32,000 bases of DNA. Source: an uncultured Candidatus Saccharibacteria bacterium. Its GTDB lineage: Bacteria > Patescibacteriota > Minisyncoccia > Minisyncoccales > Staskawiczbacteraceae. The DNA lies in NCBI GenBank assembly GCA_964516865.1, contig CAZEXD010000002.1, positions 863 through 32,862 on the forward strand, given 5' to 3'. A program made the position numbers and the translations under genes. Under the pieces are notes generated by a model. The model saw only the letters and a list, made by a program, of their open reading frames with translations, had not been told where the DNA came from and did not search any database. Shown here in pieces: positions 649 through 23,751 of this stretch. Each line of letters starts with the position of its first letter. Within the stretch, counting starts at the first letter, position 1.

Positions 649-981
649 TTAAGAATTTTGCGGTTTTTCTTTATTATTATCTTTTTTATTATCTTCTGAT
701 TTATGACAATAGAAGTTCTCTCTGATTCTTTGCAGACAACTATCTACATATTTTTCGATTTTTAAAACAAAAATTCTAATTTTTGAAAGAATCTTCAATA
801 TAATTATCTTATCTGGAAATATGCTTTTTATTTTATTTTTAAAGGCATTAAAAATATTTTCTTTTTGAATACCCTCAGGAATTGTTGGCATTTGAACTAA
901 AACAGGAATTTTTTTCGTCAAAATTAAAACAATTCCTCCCACGCTAATTACTAGAATAATTAAAGCAATTAGTTCTAACAT
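649..981 (-). CDS. Hypothetical small membrane-anchored protein (N-terminal TM helix, Lys/Asn-rich tail)
   Basis: 110-aa ORF with hydrophobic N-terminus MLELIALIILVISVGGIVLIL. Sits downstream of tsf on the same strand. No recognisable family. Confidence 0.45.
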   Translation of the reverse strand: MLELIALIILVISVGGIVLILTKKIPVLVQMPTIPEGIQKENIFNAFKNKIKSIFPDKIIILKILSKIRIFVLKIEKYVDSCLQRIRENFYCHKSEDNKKDNNKEKPQNS

Positions 982-1076
982 GTGCTAAATTTTTAATTTC
1001 CAATTTTTAATTTTTAATGAATACCCTAATTTTAATGTTTAAAAAATTAAGGCCTTAAAAATTACAAAATTAAAAA

Positions 1077-1661
1077 TTATATCTCGTACCTTGTAAACCT
1101 TTTAATCTCTATCTTTTCGCCGGTTTTAGCGATTGCGTCATCTACCAGGTCTTTTATAATTTTAGAGTTGTCTTTTATCCAAGGTTGAGAAAGAAGAGAA
1201 ACCTCTTCTTTGTATTTCTTTAATTTTCCTTCAATAATTTGTTCTACGACTTTTTGGGGTTTACCGGAATTTTTTACTTGTTCTAGATAAATCTTTTTTT
1301 CTGCTTCTAATAATTCATTTGGGATATCTTCCTCTTTAACAAACAATGGTTTCATTGCCGCTATTTGTAAACAGATTTCATGGGCTATTTTTTTGAATTC
1401 CTCGGATTGAGCAACAAAATCTGATTCGCAACGAATATCCAACAAAACTCCAGTTTTTAAATTTGGATGAATATAAGCGTCAATTAACCCTTTTTTTACT
1501 TCCCGAGTTAATTTTTTATTTGCTACCGTTTTACCCCAAATTCTTAAAATTTCTTTTGCTTTTTCTATATCTCCATTTGTTTGTTTGAGGGCTTTCTTGC
1601 ATTCCGTCGGAGAAACACCGGTTTCTTCTCTTAATTGTTTAATTTGGTCAATAGAAATCAT
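1077..1661 (-). CDS. tsf: Translation elongation factor Ts
   Basis: MISIDQIKQLREETGVSPTECKKALKQTNGDIEKAKEILR matches the EF-Ts UBA-like N-terminus. The ATG at 1661 is preferred over the TTG at 1679. Classic rpsB-tsf pairing. Confidence 0.9.
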   Translation of the reverse strand: MISIDQIKQLREETGVSPTECKKALKQTNGDIEKAKEILRIWGKTVANKKLTREVKKGLIDAYIHPNLKTGVLLDIRCESDFVAQSEEFKKIAHEICLQIAAMKPLFVKEEDIPNELLEAEKKIYLEQVKNSGKPQKVVEQIIEGKLKKYKEEVSLLSQPWIKDNSKIIKDLVDDAIAKTGEKIEIKRFTRYEI

Positions 1662-2932: not shown

Positions 2933-3694
2933 ATGAGTCATGAAAAACAATCAATAATTATTGAAATAAGGGCTGGTACGGGGGGAGATGAAGCGAGTTT
3001 ATTTGCTTATGATTTATATCGAACGTACTCAAGATTTGCTCAATCGCAAGGTTGGAGTCAGAAAATTTTGGATTCTAATCCAAATGAAATAGGTGGTTAT
3101 AAAGAAATTATTTTTGAACTAACCGGACCCAATGTTTTTGATATTATGAAATATGAAGGAGGAGTTCATCGAGTCCAAAGAATCCCCAAAACCGAAAAGG
3201 CCGGTAGAATTCATACTTCAACCGTAACAGTGGCGGTTTTACCAAAACCCCAAAAAACAGAAATAAATATAAATCCCAGTGAATTAAAAATTACTACTTA
3301 CAAGGCCTCGGGGCCAGGCGGTCAATATGTTAATAAAACAGAAAGCGCTGTAAGAATACTTCATATTCCAAGCGGTATTGTCGTCACCTCTCAATCAGAA
3401 AGAAATCAAATGCAAAATAAAGAAAATGCTTTAGCGATTTTGGCGGCAAAACTTTTGGAAAAAAAACAAAAAGAACAAAAAGAACAAATTACGGACGCAA
3501 GACGAGAACAAATTGGATGGGCGAAAAGAGCGGAAAAAATGCGAACTTATAATTTTCCCCAAGACAGAGTAACTGACCACCGTATTAATAAAAGTTGGTA
3601 TGACATTGAATCAATAATGGACGGAAAAATAGATCCCATTATTAAAGCATTTAAAAAATACGAAGAGGAAAAAGAAAAAGAAAGCAAAAATTGA
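2933..3694 (+). CDS. prfA: Class I peptide chain release factor, RF1-type (PxT = PKT, GGQ present), lacking N-terminal domain 1
   Basis: IIIEIRAGTGGDEASLFA, RVQRIPKTEKAGRIHTST (P-x-T tripeptide), SGPGGQYVNKTESAVR, and RTYNFPQDRVTDHRIN. An in-frame TAA sits two codons upstream of the ATG (2927-2929). Ends in TGA. Confidence 0.85.
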   Translation: MSHEKQSIIIEIRAGTGGDEASLFAYDLYRTYSRFAQSQGWSQKILDSNPNEIGGYKEIIFELTGPNVFDIMKYEGGVHRVQRIPKTEKAGRIHTSTVTVAVLPKPQKTEININPSELKITTYKASGPGGQYVNKTESAVRILHIPSGIVVTSQSERNQMQNKENALAILAAKLLEKKQKEQKEQITDARREQIGWAKRAEKMRTYNFPQDRVTDHRINKSWYDIESIMDGKIDPIIKAFKKYEEEKEKESKN

Positions 3695-12304: not shown

Positions 12305-12532
12305 TTAAACTATTTTTTTAATGCTAATAATTCCCAATATTATGGAAAATAAGGATAATAAAATTAAAACAATTAAGTAAGTGAATAAAATTATTAGGCC
12401 TAACGGATTCATTATTAAAAATTTCGCAAATATATATGGAAAAAAGATAAAAAGAAAAAAAGACACTAAAGACAATATCAAACTAATAACTGCTAGTTTC
12501 GATTTTGGTAATTGGTTATTTTGCGAATTCAC
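12305..12532 (-). CDS. Small polytopic membrane protein, probably the 5' part of a frameshifted DUF4190-like gene (extends to 12201 in another frame)
   Basis: 75-aa hydrophobic ORF (GTG start) ending ...GIISIKKIV* just after an A7 tract (plus T7, 12313-12319). The +1 frame continues NSLNGKKIAIGGIIIGIIVILIIILYLYMVSTAKICC* to 12201. Confidence 0.5.
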   Translation of the reverse strand: MNSQNNQLPKSKLAVISLILSLVSFFLFIFFPYIFAKFLIMNPLGLIILFTYLIVLILLSLFSIILGIISIKKIV

Positions 12533-12536
12533 GATT

Positions 12537-12950
12537 TTAAATTAATAAATTAGATTTGATAAAACTTGATGACTTGATAACTGATTGTATAATTTTAACA
12601 AAGAATATTAATAATATTCCAATTATTGTGAATAATAAAGCCCTTTTCCAATTATAACCCGCAATATGGAAAATTAATGATACAAGAAGATATAAAATAA
12701 TAAGATAAGGTATAACAAACAACGGATTGTAAGAAAAAGAGATTACTGCATCAAGCGGCTGTATTCTTATGCCCAAAATATCAATAATAATATTTGAAAA
12801 AGTAAATCTTTCTATACAAGAAGGAGGTACGGTGGTTTGAACAAATCCCTGACAACTTCTTTGGATTGATGGTACGCCAAATATCAAAACTAAGATTATA
12901 AATAAAATAATTTTCGCAATTGTCGGTTTTAAAAATTGTTTCCACTTCAT
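12537..12950 (-). CDS. Hypothetical polytopic membrane protein, copy 1
   Basis: 137-aa ORF identical to 13044..13457. TM-rich, with two Cys in the first loop (SCQGF...PPSC). TATAAT lies 9 nt upstream of the ATG. Confidence 0.6.
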   Translation of the reverse strand: MKWKQFLKPTIAKIILFIILVLIFGVPSIQRSCQGFVQTTVPPSCIERFTFSNIIIDILGIRIQPLDAVISFSYNPLFVIPYLIILYLLVSLIFHIAGYNWKRALLFTIIGILLIFFVKIIQSVIKSSSFIKSNLLI

Positions 12951-13043
12951 ATTTTTACATTATACCTTTTTTGGAAAAAATAAAAAAGCTTTTGAGTTAA
13001 TTTTTAATAATTGTTGACTAGGAGAAAAAACTTTAATACGATT

Positions 13044-13457
13044 TTAAATTAATAAATTAGATTTGATAAAACTTGATGACTTGATAACTGATTGTATAAT
13101 TTTAACAAAGAATATTAATAATATTCCAATTATTGTGAATAATAAAGCCCTTTTCCAATTATAACCCGCAATATGGAAAATTAATGATACAAGAAGATAT
13201 AAAATAATAAGATAAGGTATAACAAACAACGGATTGTAAGAAAAAGAGATTACTGCATCAAGCGGCTGTATTCTTATGCCCAAAATATCAATAATAATAT
13301 TTGAAAAAGTAAATCTTTCTATACAAGAAGGAGGTACGGTGGTTTGAACAAATCCCTGACAACTTCTTTGGATTGATGGTACGCCAAATATCAAAACTAA
13401 GATTATAAATAAAATAATTTTCGCAATTGTCGGTTTTAAAAATTGTTTCCACTTCAT
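13044..13457 (-). CDS. Hypothetical polytopic membrane protein, copy 2
   Basis: Identical to 12537..12950. Confidence 0.6.
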   Translation of the reverse strand: MKWKQFLKPTIAKIILFIILVLIFGVPSIQRSCQGFVQTTVPPSCIERFTFSNIIIDILGIRIQPLDAVISFSYNPLFVIPYLIILYLLVSLIFHIAGYNWKRALLFTIIGILLIFFVKIIQSVIKSSSFIKSNLLI

Positions 13458-13520
13458 ATTTTTACATTATACCTTTTTTGGAAAAAATAAAAAAGCTTTT
13501 GAGTTAATTTTTAATAATTG

Positions 13521-13549
13521 TTGACTAGGAGAAAAAACTTTAATACGAT
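13521..13549 (+). promoter_or_regulatory. Candidate promoter of structured RNA A
   Basis: TTGACT (13521-13526), 17-nt spacer, TACGAT (13544-13549). The element lies inside the 507-bp repeat, so a second copy exists at 13014-13042. Confidence 0.45.
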
Positions 13550-13556
13550 AATATTA

Positions 13557-13837
13557 GTTTCTTAAATAACTCGCCAAAGAAAGAAGTTGAAGGGCTTCGC
13601 GGTCTTCGCCTTCATCAGTAAGTTGCCGACACCTGGTGTTTTCTTTCCAACGGGATACAGGGTTTGCCACTTCGGCCCTGGAAATCCTACCGGAGTAGCT
13701 GAGGGTAGCCAGCACCTCCTTGCATGGCGCCGATCCTCAGTAAAGAGGTAGGATGGGGAAACTCCGGAGAATTTACTGACTTTCTTTGGCGACAAAGCCC
13801 CTGCAATCATGCCTTCGGTTGCAGGGGTATTTTAATT
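13557..13837 (+). ncRNA. Structured RNA A (unclassified), about 280 nt including terminator
   Basis: GC-rich island in AT-rich DNA. P1: 13571-13583 tcgccaaagaaag pairs perfectly with 13780-13792. P2 hairpin: 13588-13593/13609-13614. P3: 13615-13621 tcagtaa with 13773-13779 ttactga. Hairpin: 13653-13687. Long-range pair: 13690-13696 ccggagt with 13761-13767 actccgg. Intrinsic terminator at the 3' end. Confidence 0.7.
13797..13837 (+). terminator. Intrinsic terminator of RNA A
   Basis: cccctgcaa (13798-13806) pairs with ttgcagggg (13819-13827), followed by TATTTTAATT. The U-tract is only convincing on the plus strand. Confidence 0.75.
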
Positions 13838-13840
13838 AGT

Positions 13841-13869
13841 TTGACAAGATAAGAAATAATATTTATAAT
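13841..13869 (+). promoter_or_regulatory. Consensus sigma70-type promoter of structured RNA B
   Basis: TTGACA (13841-13846), exactly 17 nt, TATAAT (13864-13869). Confidence 0.8.
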
Positions 13870-13876
13870 AAAAATA

Positions 13877-14266
13877 AGCTCTCTGAAAATCATTGACGAT
13901 AGAAGGAGGAATATCAGGATCGCTTTCCAAAAGCGCGTCGACCCCCTCGGCAAAGGCAGCTCTGCTAAAAGGCGGGCAGTCCTGCGAGAAGACGCGACTC
14001 GCAAACTGCCAGCAACTGCAGCTAGAAATCTCTTACCAACGGGTAGGCTAAATTCTGTCGGAGTAGCTAGATGGAGTCGCCGTACTCCCGGTGGGCATTG
14101 ATCTCTAGCGAAGAGACGGAATGAGAGATTTCTTTCTCCGCAGAATCCTCTACTCTTGCGCGGAGAGCTGAATTCCCCTATCCCGAGGGTCTGGCTGAGC
14201 TTTCTCTGGCGATATTCTCTAAAACCCCGTGCTCGGTGTTTTAACACCAGCGCGGGTATTTTGTTT
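13877..14266 (+). ncRNA. Structured RNA B (unclassified, larger paralog of RNA A), about 390 nt including terminator
   Basis: GC-rich. Outer pairings: 13909-13915 gaatatc with 14211-14217 gatattc, and 13944-13950 ccctcgg with 14183-14189 ccgaggg. Nested hairpin: 13975-13980/14005-14010, with 13983-13988/13998-14003 inside. Further hairpins: 14060-14065/14083-14088, 14102-14106/14112-14116 and 14135-14141/14160-14166. Shares ordered blocks with RNA A: ccaacggg, cggagtagct, ctttctYtggcga. Confidence 0.7.
14225..14266 (+). terminator. Intrinsic terminator of RNA B
   Basis: ccccgtgctcggtgtt / aacaccagcgcggg stem (one bulge, one wobble) followed by TATTTTGTTTATT. Confidence 0.7.
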
Positions 14267-14444
14267 ATTAAAAAAATTTGTGCGTCTGAGTTGATGTTTT
14301 CGCTCGCATCATTTTAATATCAACTTGAGTAATTTAAGTAGTTGTATCGGTATAAATTTCCAAAAAATAGCGACCTCTATAATTATTCAAAGCAAAGAAA
14401 GCCGAAGAGAAATATCAGAAAATACAGGGTATGGGAAGGCGCTA

Positions 14445-14470
14445 CTTTTTCCCACAAACTCCGCAAATTC
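14445..14470. repeat. 26-bp direct repeat, copy 1 (orphan copy of the gap 3' end)
   Basis: ctttttcccacaaactccgcaaattc is identical to 15793-15818. On the minus strand it encodes EFAEFVGK, the C-terminal GAPDH peptide. Confidence 0.9.
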
Positions 14471-14485
14471 AGCGAAATAAGTTGT

Positions 14486-15730
14486 TTAGGGGAATTGAGC
14501 CAATATATCGCCATAAATCATTCCTTGATTATGATAAGTTCTTCTTAATGCTTTTCCAACTATTTTTTCTTCAAAAAGATATTTCTCAAAAGAATTTGGT
14601 CTTTCTTCTCCTTCAACTTCTATTACTGTCCAGACCCCAGATTTCAACCAAGTTTGAGGCCAACAACAAAAGGAACTAGACCAATAATAAGTTATGTCTT
14701 GCATGCATGCAGCATCAACGTTCACAAATAATGACGGGGCGCCATTTATCAAAGAATAATTTAGTATGTCTTCGTTGGTGGTATAGATATATTGGTTTAC
14801 CTCAGATAAATCTCTACTTGTTGTCGGAACAGGATCTTTAAAACCCAGGCCCAAAGAGTTTGGGTCCCCGTGAACGTAATACATTAATGAGAGCGGTTTC
14901 TCTTTTATTTTTTCGTTTATAGCAGAAAGATTAGAGTTTAATAAAACTTCCGTAGGATAAAAAAACTTAATATTATTATAGTTTGTTAATATTTCACTGG
15001 GACTACCAAGGTTTAGTGCCCCTGACCCACCTAATACATTATCATCCCAAGCAATGTATAATATTTTCCTAGCAAAAATCGGTATGATTGAGTTATAATT
15101 GTTGTGATAATTTATAAAATTAGAAAAAACAGCAATAATAAACTCCTTTTTTTGTGTTTCATTATATATTACTGGCTCAAAAACAAATGATAATGCAACG
15201 TCCTTACATCCATTAGCATTCCTGCCTATATAAGAGTAAAAATTATTCTCGTTATCTAAATCTAACATCCATTGGGCAGATCGGCTAATCGTAGACTCCC
15301 CCGTTTTAGGATCCGTCCAATATGCCGGTTCTTGTTTTTTAACAACGGGTAAATCTTGCCCGACTATAATAGCATATCCAACATTATCGTTTTTGACCAA
15401 ATCTTCTATAAAAACGTCGAATTCTTCAATAGTAGAATTTGTAAACTTTCTTACGCCAATATTTTCGATACCTAAATGATTTTTTACCGCGGTAAAATAT
15501 TGATTAAATACGCTAATATTATCTGGATTATCATAATACCCATTTTCCTTTATTATAATTGTTACCTTATTTCTGCTTTCATCGTAATCGCAATTAAAGG
15601 GTTTTGTTTTACCAGTACTTTCGTCAATACCATAAACAATCGTAGATGGTTCAAATTCAGTGTTGTGAGTAGTTTTTTTAAATAGCAAAAAAAAGTTGAC
15701 GCTTATCGCAACCAAAATTATCAAGACCAA
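14486..15730 (-). CDS. Membrane-anchored extracytoplasmic protein with a clan CD (clostripain C11/gingipain C25-like) His-Gly ... Ala-Cys dyad pattern
   Basis: 414-aa ORF (TTG start as listed) with an N-terminal TM helix. YYVHGDPNSLG and, 55 residues later, FVNVDAACMQ resemble the HG/AC catalytic dyad of clan CD cysteine peptidases. A better ATG at 15764 is out of frame by one base across an A8 tract. Confidence 0.55.
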   Translation of the reverse strand: MVLIILVAISVNFFLLFKKTTHNTEFEPSTIVYGIDESTGKTKPFNCDYDESRNKVTIIIKENGYYDNPDNISVFNQYFTAVKNHLGIENIGVRKFTNSTIEEFDVFIEDLVKNDNVGYAIIVGQDLPVVKKQEPAYWTDPKTGESTISRSAQWMLDLDNENNFYSYIGRNANGCKDVALSFVFEPVIYNETQKKEFIIAVFSNFINYHNNYNSIIPIFARKILYIAWDDNVLGGSGALNLGSPSEILTNYNNIKFFYPTEVLLNSNLSAINEKIKEKPLSLMYYVHGDPNSLGLGFKDPVPTTSRDLSEVNQYIYTTNEDILNYSLINGAPSLFVNVDAACMQDITYYWSSSFCCWPQTWLKSGVWTVIEVEGEERPNSFEKYLFEEKIVGKALRRTYHNQGMIYGDILAQFP

Positions 15731-15785
15731 TACTACTAAAACTATAGCGATTTTTTTTATTCATAAACAATCGTATTCGTCTTTA

Positions 15786-16796
15786 TTACAATCTTTTTCC
15801 CACAAACTCCGCAAATTCCGCCAGCCGACACGCATAGCCCCACTCATTGTCATACCAACCAACCACTTTCACTAAATTTCCAATAGTCATAGTCAATTGA
15901 CTATCTAAAATAGCAGAATGAGAATCGCCAATGAAATCAGCGGAAACGAGCGGCTCATCTACCACCTTTAAAATTCCTTTAAAACTTTTCTGATTAGCGG
16001 CTTTTTTAAACATTTTATTAATTTCTTCTTTTGATGCCGTTTTTTCTATTTCTACAATTAAATCCAAACTGGAAACCGTGGGCGTAGGCACGCGCATGGC
16101 AATGCCATCTAATTTCCCCTTCAACTCCGGTATCACCTTACCCAACGCTTTAGCGGCTCCAGTTGAGGTCGGGACAATGTTTAAAGCAGCCGCCCTCGCT
16201 CTTCTTAAATCTTTATGAGGTAGGTCCAAAATTCTTTGGTCATTAGTATAACTATGAATTGTGGTCATAAATCCCTTCACAATTTTTAGATTATCGTTTA
16301 AAACCTTGGCTAAAGGCGCAATACAGTTTGTGGTGCAAGAGCCCATATCAACAATTTTATCTTTTTCCGGATTAAACTTTCCCTCGTTGACGCCTAAAAC
16401 ATAAGTTGGAATTTCTTCGCTTTTAGCCGGCGCTGAAATTATAACCTTTTTAGCACCGGCTTTCAGATGCTTCGCAGCGCCTTCTTTATCAGTAAACTGA
16501 CCGGTGCATTCCAAAACAATATCAATTCCTAATTTTTTCCAAGGAAGGTTTTGGGGATTGGTCTCACTAAAAACCAAAATCTCTTTTCCATTAACAATGA
16601 TTGATTTTTCAGTTGAATTAACGTTAGCGTGATAATTTCGATAAACTGAATCGTATTTCAAAAGGTGCGCCAGCGTTTTAGTATCAGTTAAATCGTTTAT
16701 TGCCACCACTTCCAATTGAGAATGTTTTTCCAAAATTCTTCTAAGGGTTGGTCGCCCTATTCTTCCAAACCCATTTATTGCAATTTTTATTGACAT
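15786..16796 (-). CDS. gap: Glyceraldehyde-3-phosphate dehydrogenase
   Basis: IAINGFGRIGR Rossmann start, catalytic SCTTNC, and WYDNEWGY near the C-terminus. Confidence 0.93.
   Translation of the reverse strand: MSIKIAINGFGRIGRPTLRRILEKHSQLEVVAINDLTDTKTLAHLLKYDSVYRNYHANVNSTEKSIIVNGKEILVFSETNPQNLPWKKLGIDIVLECTGQFTDKEGAAKHLKAGAKKVIISAPAKSEEIPTYVLGVNEGKFNPEKDKIVDMGSCTTNCIAPLAKVLNDNLKIVKGFMTTIHSYTNDQRILDLPHKDLRRARAAALNIVPTSTGAAKALGKVIPELKGKLDGIAMRVPTPTVSSLDLIVEIEKTASKEEINKMFKKAANQKSFKGILKVVDEPLVSADFIGDSHSAILDSQLTMTIGNLVKVVGWYDNEWGYACRLAEFAEFVGKRL
15793..15818. repeat. 26-bp direct repeat, copy 2 (inside the last codons of gap)
   Basis: Identical to 14445-14470. Confidence 0.9.
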
Positions 16797-21686: not shown

Positions 21687-22964
21687 CTAATGAGTGGCGC
21701 AAGAAATACACGGATCGTAAACTCGGATAAGAGTTCTAATTTTTTTATGGATTTCTTTTTGAGATAATTTGGAAATATTCGGCAAATAAATCTTTAAATC
21801 TTCTTCTAAATTATTCAAAAACTGGGCGGTAGGAGTAACAATATCGCAATCAATAATTCTTCCTTCGTTGTTAATTTCAAAATAAGTAAATAAAGTTCCT
21901 CGCGGAGCCTCCATTGCCGACAAGCCGGAACCTTTATTAATTTTTATCTCTTTATTTTTTTCACTAAGATTATGATTTAGAATTTCTTTTATTATTTTTT
22001 CCACCTCCTCAATGAAATGAATAACTTCCACCGCCTGAAAAAATAAATTATGAAAAACATTATTAAAAATTTTTTCCCTTCCTCCTCTTTTCTGGCTAAA
22101 TTTATCTAAAAACTCTTTTGCGCTGGGATTTAATTTATCGGAGTTATTGTAAACTCTGGCAATGGCGCCAAGCATATAAGAATTTTCTTGAAATTTTACC
22201 CTTTTTACCGGTGGCTGTTTGCTAAAATCTTGAACTATTTGATTAGAATAAAAATCGCCGACGGAAAAATTCTTTCCGCCTATTTTAAAAATTTCCGTCT
22301 GATAAAAAGAATAATCAGTTAAAGCAAACAAAGAACCAAAAATAGTTTTTCTTGCCATTTCGGGGTAATTAATTTTAGATAATGTTTCCAATAATACCAA
22401 CGAATTCTCTTTGGCTTTTTTGGCGGTTTCAAGAATTTCTTCAAACTTTTCTTTTCCCGCAATTTTGGAAAAACCGCCAATTTGGGGAGTGATAGGATGA
22501 ATTGCTCGACCGCCGACATATTTTGCTATTTTTAAACCAAAATCTCTGATAAGTAACGCTGCTTTTGTTTCTTTGGGAAATTTTTTAAATAAATCTAGAT
22601 CTTTTTCAATATCTAAAAAATCCGCCAAACTCAAAAAAAACAAATGCAAGGTGTGGCTGTGGATTATTTGGCCGGCTAACAATAATTTCCTCATTAAAAC
22701 CGTCAACTCCGAAACTTTGATATTCAACGCCTTTTCTAGAGCCACACAGCCGTTTAAAATATGGACAATGGGACAAATACCGCAAATTCGCGAAATTACC
22801 AATGGCGCGTCTTTTATTTTCCTGCCGATTAAAATTCCTTCAATCTGACGCAAACCCTCAAGTGTTTCTATTTTTAAATGTTTTACTTTACCGGTAGCCG
22901 CAACTTCTGCCCAAAATCCCGCTTCACCCTCAATTTTATGAATATGAGGAATGCTTATTTTCAT
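21687..22964 (-). CDS. [NiFe]-hydrogenase large subunit (cytoplasmic, group 3-like)
   Basis: N-terminal RICGICPIVH (RxCGxCxxxH). The protein ends exactly at DPCISCATH (DPCxxCxxH) with no extension. Confidence 0.88.
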   Translation of the reverse strand: MKISIPHIHKIEGEAGFWAEVAATGKVKHLKIETLEGLRQIEGILIGRKIKDAPLVISRICGICPIVHILNGCVALEKALNIKVSELTVLMRKLLLAGQIIHSHTLHLFFLSLADFLDIEKDLDLFKKFPKETKAALLIRDFGLKIAKYVGGRAIHPITPQIGGFSKIAGKEKFEEILETAKKAKENSLVLLETLSKINYPEMARKTIFGSLFALTDYSFYQTEIFKIGGKNFSVGDFYSNQIVQDFSKQPPVKRVKFQENSYMLGAIARVYNNSDKLNPSAKEFLDKFSQKRGGREKIFNNVFHNLFFQAVEVIHFIEEVEKIIKEILNHNLSEKNKEIKINKGSGLSAMEAPRGTLFTYFEINNEGRIIDCDIVTPTAQFLNNLEEDLKIYLPNISKLSQKEIHKKIRTLIRVYDPCISCATH

Positions 22965-23004
22965 AAATTTTTCCTAGAAAAAAATTTTAATTAATTTTTA
23001 AAAA

Positions 23005-23751
23005 TTAGAAAGCGTCTTTTAAACCAAATATTTCTAAATCACTTTCAATTTCTTTGCGCGCTTTAAATTTTTCCATTGCTGTTATAAATTTTTTTACTTC
23101 TGCGTTTTTCAAAAACCCTCGGCAAGCAAAACAAATTTCTCCATTTTTTGGACAAATCGCTCCGCAACCACCTAAAGTAATGGGGCCAAAACAAACTTTT
23201 TTTTGAGCCAAAAAACAATCACTTGTCCCCTTTAAAGAACATTCAGAACAGACTGGCAATTGCGGAATCTCGGGAATTTCCCCTTTTATCATTTCGGAAG
23301 CATATTTTAAAAACTCTTCGCCGTTTATAGGGCAACCGGGAATTATAAAATCAACTTTAACAAAATTATCAACCTCTTTAATTTTGGGGTTGGCAACTTT
23401 TAAGGTTTTATAAATATAGCGAATAGTTTTTTCTTTGTTCTGATAATTTTTAATTTCAGGAATTCCGCCAAGCGCCGCGCAATTCCCCAAAACCACTAAA
23501 GTTTTAGAGTTTTTCCGAAGTTTTTTAAGCAAATTAATATCTTTTTTTGTAATCGGATTTCCTTCAATAAAAGTTATGTCAATCTTTGTCTTTTTAAGCA
23601 GTTCGTCTTCTATTAATGGCATATCAAGCAACTCTGTTTTTTTTAGAAAATTAAAAAATCTTTTACCCAGGTCTAATAAAGCAAATTGACATCCCTCGCA
23701 AGAGGTTAAAGAAACAATGACAATTTTTTTCTTAAGAATTTTTTTTCTCAT
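23005..23751 (-). CDS. [NiFe]-hydrogenase small subunit (group 3-like, no Tat signal)
   Basis: VSLTSCEGCQFALLD, GNCAALGGIP and IPGCP proximal-cluster ligands, plus a C-terminal Cys-rich block (CSECS...CFLAQKKVCFGP...GGCGAICP...CFACRG). Confidence 0.85.
   Translation of the reverse strand: MRKKILKKKIVIVSLTSCEGCQFALLDLGKRFFNFLKKTELLDMPLIEDELLKKTKIDITFIEGNPITKKDINLLKKLRKNSKTLVVLGNCAALGGIPEIKNYQNKEKTIRYIYKTLKVANPKIKEVDNFVKVDFIIPGCPINGEEFLKYASEMIKGEIPEIPQLPVCSECSLKGTSDCFLAQKKVCFGPITLGGCGAICPKNGEICFACRGFLKNAEVKKFITAMEKFKARKEIESDLEIFGLKDAF

Follow-up and report, generated by a model that had tools for sequence, protein, structure and literature searches.

What is encoded by a short, GC-rich island that is located within an otherwise AT-rich stretch of DNA, on the strand opposite to nearly all of its protein genes? 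The question is raised by a contig from an uncultured Candidatus Saccharibacteria bacterium (assembly GCA_964516865.1, contig CAZEXD010000002.1, positions 863 to 32,862 of the forward strand); the whole stretch of 32,000 nucleotides (nt) that was analysed is referred to here as the window. The island, at window positions 13557-14266, is composed of two consecutive units, A and B, for which a preliminary description had proposed a tandem pair of paralogous structured RNA genes. The comparison of these units with each other and with a third copy, found in a metagenomic contig (L029), makes it very probable that A and B represent a genuine structured RNA family. This family is undescribed, in that it fails every family test run, and it is built from known structural modules, with no new biochemistry being claimed.

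Patescibacteria possess tiny genomes, and we know of almost no characterised regulatory or structural RNAs in these organisms beyond the universal ones. A conserved RNA of ~240 nt that occupies one locus in distant relatives, and that is duplicated in one of them, provides a testable candidate for a new RNA function, while its rarity (three members, two organisms) sets bounds on the statistics and on how widely it is likely to matter.

Two units and their signals

GC content in the window is mostly 0.25-0.40 (~0.24-0.41 outside the island, with a reference value of ~0.32), versus 0.49 and 0.44 across 13601-14400, and the long open reading frames (ORFs) are nearly all carried by the minus strand, with units A and B lying on the plus strand. 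Both the compositional contrast and the opposite orientation pointed out in the preliminary description are thereby borne out. The features assigned to unit A, other than the domain discussed in the next section, are the following:

13521-13549, plus strand: promoter-like site of unit A, TTGACT-17-TACGAT, 9/12 match; the last 29 nt of a duplicated segment
13557-13837, plus strand: unit A, ~280 nt from the presumed start to the U-tract
13571-13792, plus strand: body of unit A, closed by helix P1 (13571-83/13780-92; 13 base pairs (bp), perfect)
13583-13613, plus strand: 5' hairpin
13615-24/13770-79, plus strand: helix P2, in the minimum-energy fold
13640-46/13755-61, plus strand: helix P3, a pyrimidine strand against a purine strand
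13647-53, plus strand: junction block CCAACGG
13658-80, plus strand: hairpin Hq, which covaries with L029 (two G-C to C-G changes)
13797-13837, plus strand: terminator-like hairpin of 12 pairs (13797-13828) with U-tract, of the intrinsic-terminator type

Those of unit B, the more diverged paralogue, are as follows:

13841-13869, plus strand: promoter-like site of unit B, a perfect TTGACA-17-TATAAT, 12/12 match
13877-14266, plus strand: unit B, ~390 nt, with additional hairpins
13905-11/14201-07, plus strand: helix P1
13918-39, plus strand: 5' hairpin
13944-50/14183-89, plus strand: helix P2
13962-14021, plus strand: long inserted hairpin
14024-34/14123-33, plus strand: helix P3
14036-42, plus strand: junction block CCAACGG
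14135-66, plus strand: 3' hairpin
~14226-14256, plus strand: terminator hairpin, followed by the U-tract UAUUUUGUUU; missed by a simple scan and present in the fold

As paralogous, free-standing RNAs, A and B would each be transcribed from a sigma-70-type promoter of their own to an intrinsic terminator of their own, on the strand opposite to the neighbouring genes. A promoter and an intrinsic terminator on the RNA strand are the generic signals of an independent small RNA (sRNA), and both are present as sequence-level matches: the promoter-like site agrees at 12/12 positions in unit B (13841-69), at 9/12 in unit A (13521-49) and at 10/12 in L029 (1324-51), and a hairpin with a T-tract is found at the 3' end of all three RNAs (3/3). 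The earlier claim of a sigma-70-like promoter for each unit stands for the perfect site of B, and must be tempered for A, whose weaker site lies inside the duplicated segment. The proposed hairpin and U-tract ends were recovered in both cases, by scan in A (13797-13828) and in the fold in B (~14226-14256).

Compared with shuffled sequences, unit A folds with z = -5.4 on the plus strand and -2.8 on the minus strand, and the L029 RNA with z = -6.3. P1, the hairpin that follows and the 13615-24/13770-79 helix are all contained in the minimum-energy fold of A, in agreement with the 13-bp closing helix, following hairpin and stacked helix that had been described. The three ordered sequence blocks said to be shared by A and B also exist; the block CCAACGGG occupies an equivalent structural position in the two units, and the block CUUUCUYUGGCGA forms the 3' strand of the P1 closing helix in both.

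A 71-nt domain maintained by compensatory changes

The paralogy of A and B is visible in structure rather than in plain sequence. A plain local alignment of the two units is marginal (score 33, where shuffles average 22 and reach at most 38). Positions 13682-13760 of A and 14050-14128 of B nevertheless align without gaps over 79 nt, 43/79 being identical. When aligned in this way, the units preserve two helices, with double changes at six of the 15 pairs, and these helices flank the identical unpaired strands GGAGUA and RAAGA. The conserved domain that is delimited in this manner comprises the following elements:

13684-13754, plus strand: conserved domain of unit A, 71 nt; helices H1 (13684-91/13747-54) and H2 (13698-705/13734-41)
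13692-97 opposite 13742-46, plus strand: internal loop of unit A, GGAGUA opposite AAAGA
13706-07 opposite 13729-33, plus strand: kink-turn-like loop of unit A, UA opposite GCCGA
13708-28, plus strand: apical hairpin of unit A, with bulged A13724 and loop CCUCCU
14052-14122, plus strand: conserved domain of unit B, 71 nt; helices H1 (14052-59/14115-22) and H2 (14066-73/14102-09)
14060-65 opposite 14110-14, plus strand: internal loop of unit B, GGAGUA opposite GAAGA
14074-75 opposite 14097-101, plus strand: kink-turn-like loop of unit B, GA opposite AUUGA
14076-96, plus strand: apical hairpin of unit B, with loop UACUCC

From base to tip, the domain consists of H1 (8 bp), a 6x5 internal loop (GGAGUA/RAAGA) in which only R varies, and H2 (8 bp). 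H2 ends in an invariant G.U pair and is followed by a 2x5 loop, with UA, GA and GA (in A, B and L029, respectively) opposite GCCGA, AUUGA and GAAGA. At the apex are found a 4-bp stem, a single bulge on the 3' side, a 3-4-bp stem and a 6-nt loop that is pyrimidine-rich in all three RNAs and not conserved in sequence (CCUCCU in A, UACUCC in B, UCGUCU in L029).

The third sequence was obtained through pattern searches. A pattern combining the blocks CCAACGGG and AAATNCNNNCGGAGTAGC / CGGAGTAGCT yielded, among 185,579 GTDB species genomes, one chance match inside a coding sequence (L002); this pattern was too strict, as it demanded CCAACGGG, whereas L029 carries GCCGAAUGG at that place. A strict core pattern gave 0 matches in 241 million metagenome records, L029 failing at one H1 position, and a second pattern, independent of H1, gave 9 loci in the same records, of which 8 are without the helices and one is the true homologue, L029 (JGI Ga0315283_10303810, 1731 bp). 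Its features are:

678-1244, minus strand: pduL
1324-1351, plus strand: promoter-like site, TTGACT-16-TAAAAT
RNA, plus strand: about 250 nt, with a 14-bp closing helix
Terminator of the RNA: strong hairpin and T6, after which comes the convergent 3' end of gap

L029, which belongs to another Patescibacteria genome, thus shares with the window locus both the RNA domain and the genes on either side (pduL and gap). No further member was added by other routes. A covariance model (R1), which scores unit A at 96.5 bits and unit B at 92.2 bits, both being its training sequences, found no further copies over 242 kb of collected loci, and two candidate relatives (L024 and L032) were rejected as pattern-driven chance matches. 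Loci collected through gap (L004, L005, L006 and L017) do not have the RNA at this position; those collected through a 414-amino-acid (aa) gene beside unit B yielded no new member, one contig being too short and another (L003) identical to the window; and the RNA adjoins 0/5 of those collected through a neighbouring 137-aa gene. Nothing relevant on the RNA or its invariant block was found in the literature. With three members in two organisms found, the family looks rare.

The fold of the domain is maintained by compensatory changes among A, B and the L029 homologue. In a hand alignment of the three sequences, standard pairs are found in 66/70 helix cells, and of 24 pairs 11 are compensatory, 3 change on one side and 8 are invariant; when 3' strands are exchanged between sequences, pairing falls from 66 to 51-57 cells. 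A formal pair count was made on a MAFFT alignment in which the apical stem of L029 is misplaced, and which in this respect counts against the structure. Pairing still reached 91.3%, as compared with 81.2 +/- 2.3 in shuffles, and double changes were counted in 8 pairs (2.7 +/- 1.3 in shuffles), neither value being reached in any of 500 shuffles (0/500 in each case); slid registers are only 33-46% paired.

The conserved arm stands on P3 at a multi-helix junction, and the molecule is closed by long terminal helices. P3 (7 bp) is paired in 21/21 cells of A, B and L029, and its purine-rich 3' strand follows directly after H1, so that the elements between P3 and H1 all lie on the 5' side, with 0 nt between the 3' strands of H1 and P3 in all three RNAs. 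These elements include a small one that reads CC-AAC-GG in A and B and GCC-GAAU-GGC in L029, as well as Hq, which is present in A and L029 and absent in B. The comparative model is the exact unconstrained minimum-energy fold of L029; in A and B it lies 5.5 and 3.5 kcal/mol, respectively, above the optimum of each RNA.

These data uphold the preliminary description of tandem paralogous structured RNA genes, through the gapless 71-nt domain, the compensatory changes and the syntenic L029 homologue, and they modify its interior pairings. The closing helices of unit A are kept and some of the interior ones are replaced: the comparison does not support a 7-bp pairing of 13690-96 with 13761-67, the bases of which correspond to the end of H1 and the conserved GGAGUA loop. 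A minimum-energy pairing of CUUCGG with CCGGAG is likewise superseded by the comparative model.

The two internal loops of the arm can be compared with known structural modules. The GGAGUA/RAAGA loop resembles the loop E, or bulged-G (sarcin-ricin type), module, in which an AGUA strand faces GAA within a helix; GGAGUA/GAAGA of unit B fits this pattern exactly, and A and L029 carry AAAGA (AAA). For the 2x5 loop the comparison is with the kink-turn, in which a regular stem adjoins a bulge of three bases that is succeeded by G.A and A.G pairs (PMC3672288). The loop has this layout, in that the bulged strand reads stem-GCC/AUU/GAA-GA-U-C and the opposite strand G-G-UA/GA/GA-stem; the G.A position is invariant, and G occupies the A.G position in B and in L029. 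A kinked three-dimensional geometry is predicted from this layout.

The apical loop of unit B, UACUCC (14083-14088), is the exact complement of GGAGUA (14060-14065, and 13692-13697 in A), an agreement with a chance of ~0.4%. The complementarity extends to 4 nt in unit A and 3 nt in L029, and is thus not conserved; in B it could reflect a fold-back or an RNA-RNA contact, and the two paralogues might associate mutually, or each with itself, through apical loop and GGAGUA strand. It is also of note that the 5' strand of P1 in unit B carries a perfect Shine-Dalgarno-like AAGGAGG (13903-13909), with no start codon after it, and that the apical region of unit A (13714-13722) reads CACCUCCUU, similar to the 3' end of 16S rRNA. 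AAGGAGG in B and the CACCUCCUU region in A are mutually complementary over 7 nt, and neither is conserved in L029.

With this architecture, the kink-turn would bend the arm such that the apical hairpin packs back along H2, toward the GGAGUA loop and the junction. The resulting compact tertiary fold would act in trans, by binding either a protein (for example a kink-turn binder of the L7Ae type) or a small ligand, rather than through long antisense pairing. The statement as a whole, namely an undescribed structured RNA family with an in-trans mode of action that depends on a kink-turn fold, is held with moderate confidence. A more specific possibility, and a rather doubtful one, is that of a new kink-turn RNA class specific to Patescibacteria, serving either as the RNA subunit of a ribonucleoprotein of unknown nature or as a trans-acting aptamer tied to central carbon metabolism; the latter link is proposed because the position between gap and pduL is conserved.

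Several observations weigh against this reading. The fold of unit B gives a modest signal (z = -2.4 on the plus strand, -1.9 on the minus strand), H1 of L029 holds two U.U mismatches, and the A.G position of the kink-turn is occupied in unit A by U in place of G. Covariation statistics are limited by the three sequences from two organisms, the outer helices come mostly from single-sequence folding, and transcription, transcript ends and the strand of the units are deduced from sequence. No L7Ae-family gene is present in the window, and no partner protein or ligand was identified. Finally, the relative closest to the window by gap (L016) does not have the RNA at its gap/pduL locus, which indicates that the RNA is dispensable in some lineages.

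Alternative explanations and the history of the locus

Units A and B could, in principle, be seed-pairing sRNAs in which an exposed apical loop, such as the anti-Shine-Dalgarno-like CCUCCU of A, pairs with purine-rich ribosome-binding sites and in which the body only provides stability. This explanation survives best among the alternatives, and is nonetheless unlikely. Pyrimidine-rich apical loops in all three RNAs agree with it, as do the promoter and terminator of each RNA, which are typical of sRNAs; however, the loop sequence is not conserved, UCGUCU of L029 being without the anti-Shine-Dalgarno core. A conserved, elaborate fold with invariant internal loops would also be unusual in seed-pairing sRNAs, and 240-390 nt with many helices is large for such a role. 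The anti-Shine-Dalgarno loop as a family feature was rejected, since the loop of L029 differs.

GC-rich islands of AT-rich genomes are typically stable RNAs, and the long closing helices and partly rod-like shape of the units would suit a housekeeping RNA (6S-like, SRP, RNase P or a piece of tmRNA) that has diverged beyond recognition by Rfam. The searches make this quite improbable. At the gathering thresholds of Rfam 15, the units match no family (RNase P, SRP, 6S, tmRNA, raiA, ROOL, GOLLD, HEARO, OLE, Lysine and T-box included), and at E<=10 with lax filters, positions 13400-14400 of the window and 1300-1650 of L029 gave only low-scoring chance or terminator-like matches. ARAGORN, run on the window, found no tmRNA at the units; together with Rfam it detected a tRNA(-Thr) at 517-589 (518-589 in Rfam), the sole gathering-level match. 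The statement in the preliminary description that no family is assignable, for which it had recommended a search of this kind, therefore applies to both the window and L029. Furthermore, the unpaired bases of the junction lie on the 5' side only, unlike the two-sided bubble of 6S RNA, and absence from the closest relative together with two copies here is ill-suited to an essential single-copy RNA.

The third alternative, that of RNA cargo of a mobile or defence island (a guide or scaffold for a nuclease or recombinase, a retron-like RNA or an RNA antitoxin), is bound to the history of the locus, in which two further features take part:

12531-13549: tandem duplication with a period of 507 bp (512-bp exact identity at a 507-bp offset)
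14445-15821: 414-aa gene (14486-15730, minus strand) with bracketing repeats, located between unit B and gap

The duplication carries the 137-aa membrane-protein gene twice, together with the promoter-like site of unit A, an identical second copy of which lies in the upstream duplicate (13014-13042); that copy would read antisense into the second copy of the 137-aa gene. No Pfam domain is found in the 414-aa gene; those of its homologues that bear a name are labelled archaeon or Nanoarchaeota, and a dockerin domain occurs in one homologue. The gene is bracketed by 29-nt direct repeats of the 3' end of gap (14445-14473 and 15793-15821, 28/29 identical), and from these repeats and the archaeal-labelled relatives it looks like a separate, later lateral insertion made with target duplication. 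The fresh duplication and inserted gene that had been reported to flank the units are thus both present, and the 3.6 kb between gap and pduL are extra relative to L016 (85% protein identity for gap), where gap is followed by 72 nt (1208-1279, with a terminator hairpin) and then pduL.

The spot after gap also varies among relatives and is a hotspot of gene-content change: in L005 (gap 80% identical), a bAvd gene, an accessory of diversity-generating retroelements, and a truncated downstream gene are found after gap (12499-13468), and in L004 acetyl-CoA synthetase genes. The 137-aa membrane-protein gene may itself move with insertion elements; in L018 (1671-3087), a relative of it lies directly downstream of an rve-family integrase gene.

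Against the 3.6 kb of the window, the gap-pduL interval of L029 holds a single RNA and no extra protein gene. Given the place of this single copy, with pduL on one side, gap on the other and no mobile genes, both the duplication and the 414-aa gene can be taken as later events around a resident RNA locus, and the RNA appears to be resident at gap/pduL rather than mobile cargo. L029 looks more distant from the window than L016, in a comparison of PduL made by eye only. Core identities are 72% between A and L029, 65% between A and B, and 62% between B and L029; since its core is closer to L029 than to B, unit A is the likely orthologue of the single-copy L029 RNA, and unit B would be an older or faster-evolving duplicate with inserted hairpins.

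Other searches speak against mobility as well. No similarity of the units to phages, plasmids or viral contigs was found: blastn against phages and plasmids gave no match, and the core pattern gave 9 chance matches in viral contigs, all without both helices. Relatives of the 137-aa gene occur elsewhere with no adjoining RNA, and the window has no reverse transcriptase, recombinase/integrase, TnpB or IscB gene by which retrons, bridge RNAs or omega RNAs would be recognised. The cargo hypothesis, put forward in the preliminary description, is consequently very doubtful; the examination of homologue neighbours that it had called for identified pduL and gap on either side of the RNA in L029, and no protein partner.

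A cis-acting leader or riboswitch, the terminator of which would be the expression platform, could be envisaged from the complex, aptamer-like fold ending in an intrinsic terminator, and from an arm whose putative loop E and kink-turn bring to mind the P2 arm found in the lysine riboswitch (PMC3082890). Gene order largely refutes this highly improbable reading: 0/3 copies have a downstream gene on the same strand, as had been noted for the two units of the window, since what follows A is the promoter of B, while B faces a convergent gene and the L029 RNA the 3' end of gap, likewise convergent. In addition, no riboswitch model matches, and the terminator does not overlap P1 or offer an apparent switching alternative.

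That the units have no function, representing the remnant of a decaying gene, an artefact of assembly or a small coding region, as ORFs placed across them by gene callers and the great rarity of the family might suggest, is barely credible given that an independent assembly is 100% identical over 909 bp, that helices are preserved by compensatory changes, and that no reading frame is conserved among A, B and L029, the 146-aa minus-strand ORF over unit B having no relative among 1.84 billion protein cluster representatives, a search that returned only the ORF itself. The view of the long minus-strand ORFs as artefacts is therefore sustained, and the comparison of homologues that had been proposed, coding frame versus compensatory change, comes out on the side of RNA. 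The independent assembly (L003; Logan SRR10095340, from another sample) covers unit B and most of unit A, and because of its identity the window sequence is not an assembly chimera. The L003 contig runs only to window position 13592, 43 nt beyond the repeat, an end point compatible with the repeat having interrupted the assembly.

The remainder of the window is made up largely of housekeeping genes, nearly all on the minus strand, which include those for EF-Ts, S2, L25, fructose-bisphosphate aldolase, PEP synthase and acetate kinase; PduL, GAPDH, enolase, thioredoxin reductase, NiFe hydrogenase, FtsZ and UvrB are also encoded, and the best-named relatives of GAPDH are from Patescibacteria. In a class-I release-factor gene (2933-3694, 253 aa), the match to the PCRF domain begins only at profile position 97, and none of the three plus-strand frames is free of stops in the 478-bp AT-rich stretch upstream, which suggests either that the N-terminal domain is missing or that the gene is damaged. 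At 21687-23751, genes for a NiFe-hydrogenase large subunit and a small-subunit-like protein adjoin a DUF6390 gene, in a small-genome bacterium.

Comparison with known RNAs

OLE, ROOL and GOLLD are orphan, free-standing, strongly structured bacterial non-coding RNAs with no known function, and paralogue pairs of 6S RNA are known in some bacteria. Like 6S RNA, units A and B would be small, stable and independently transcribed, with long terminal helices (predicted in the case of the units); the two-sided central bubble of 6S RNA is not found in them, as the 3' strands of H1 and P3 adjoin with 0 nt in between, and RF00013 gives no match. The raiA motif RNA, the function of which is unknown, provides a further parallel, since its core holds a kink-turn-like bend (PMC12968392). 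Like raiA, the units would be free-standing, strongly structured bacterial RNAs; however, raiA, with eight stems, a four-way junction, two three-way junctions and pseudoknots, occurs in >2700 species (PMC12968392), whereas the family of A and B has three known members, in Patescibacteria. Paralogous structured RNAs with kink-turns have also been described in Pyrococcus abyssi, where sRkB and sRkC (~210-216 nt), which have a possible loop E and unknown function, bind L7Ae (PMC3124441). These RNAs are archaeal, and sRkB overlaps a downstream start codon (PMC3124441); the units are likened to them by description, with no homology established.

The arm itself finds its nearest counterpart in the P2-P2a-P2b arm of the lysine riboswitch, in which helix, loop E-type loop, helix, kink-turn and hairpin follow each other in the same order as the helices and putative modules of the arm (PMC3082890, PMC3672288). 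In the riboswitch, loop E and kink-turn together position the terminal loop (PMC3082890), and the kink-turn is required for the loop-loop contact that the latter makes (PMC3082890, PMC3672288). The units differ from it in having no Lysine model match (E<=10), no five-way junction and no lysine-core sequence; and whereas the lysine riboswitch is part of a 5' untranslated region, A and B have no downstream gene on the same strand, and their junction elements all lie 5' of the arm, with none 3' of it. The lysine-riboswitch arm may thus offer the best model for how the arm of units A and B works, the likeness being one of mode and not of membership.

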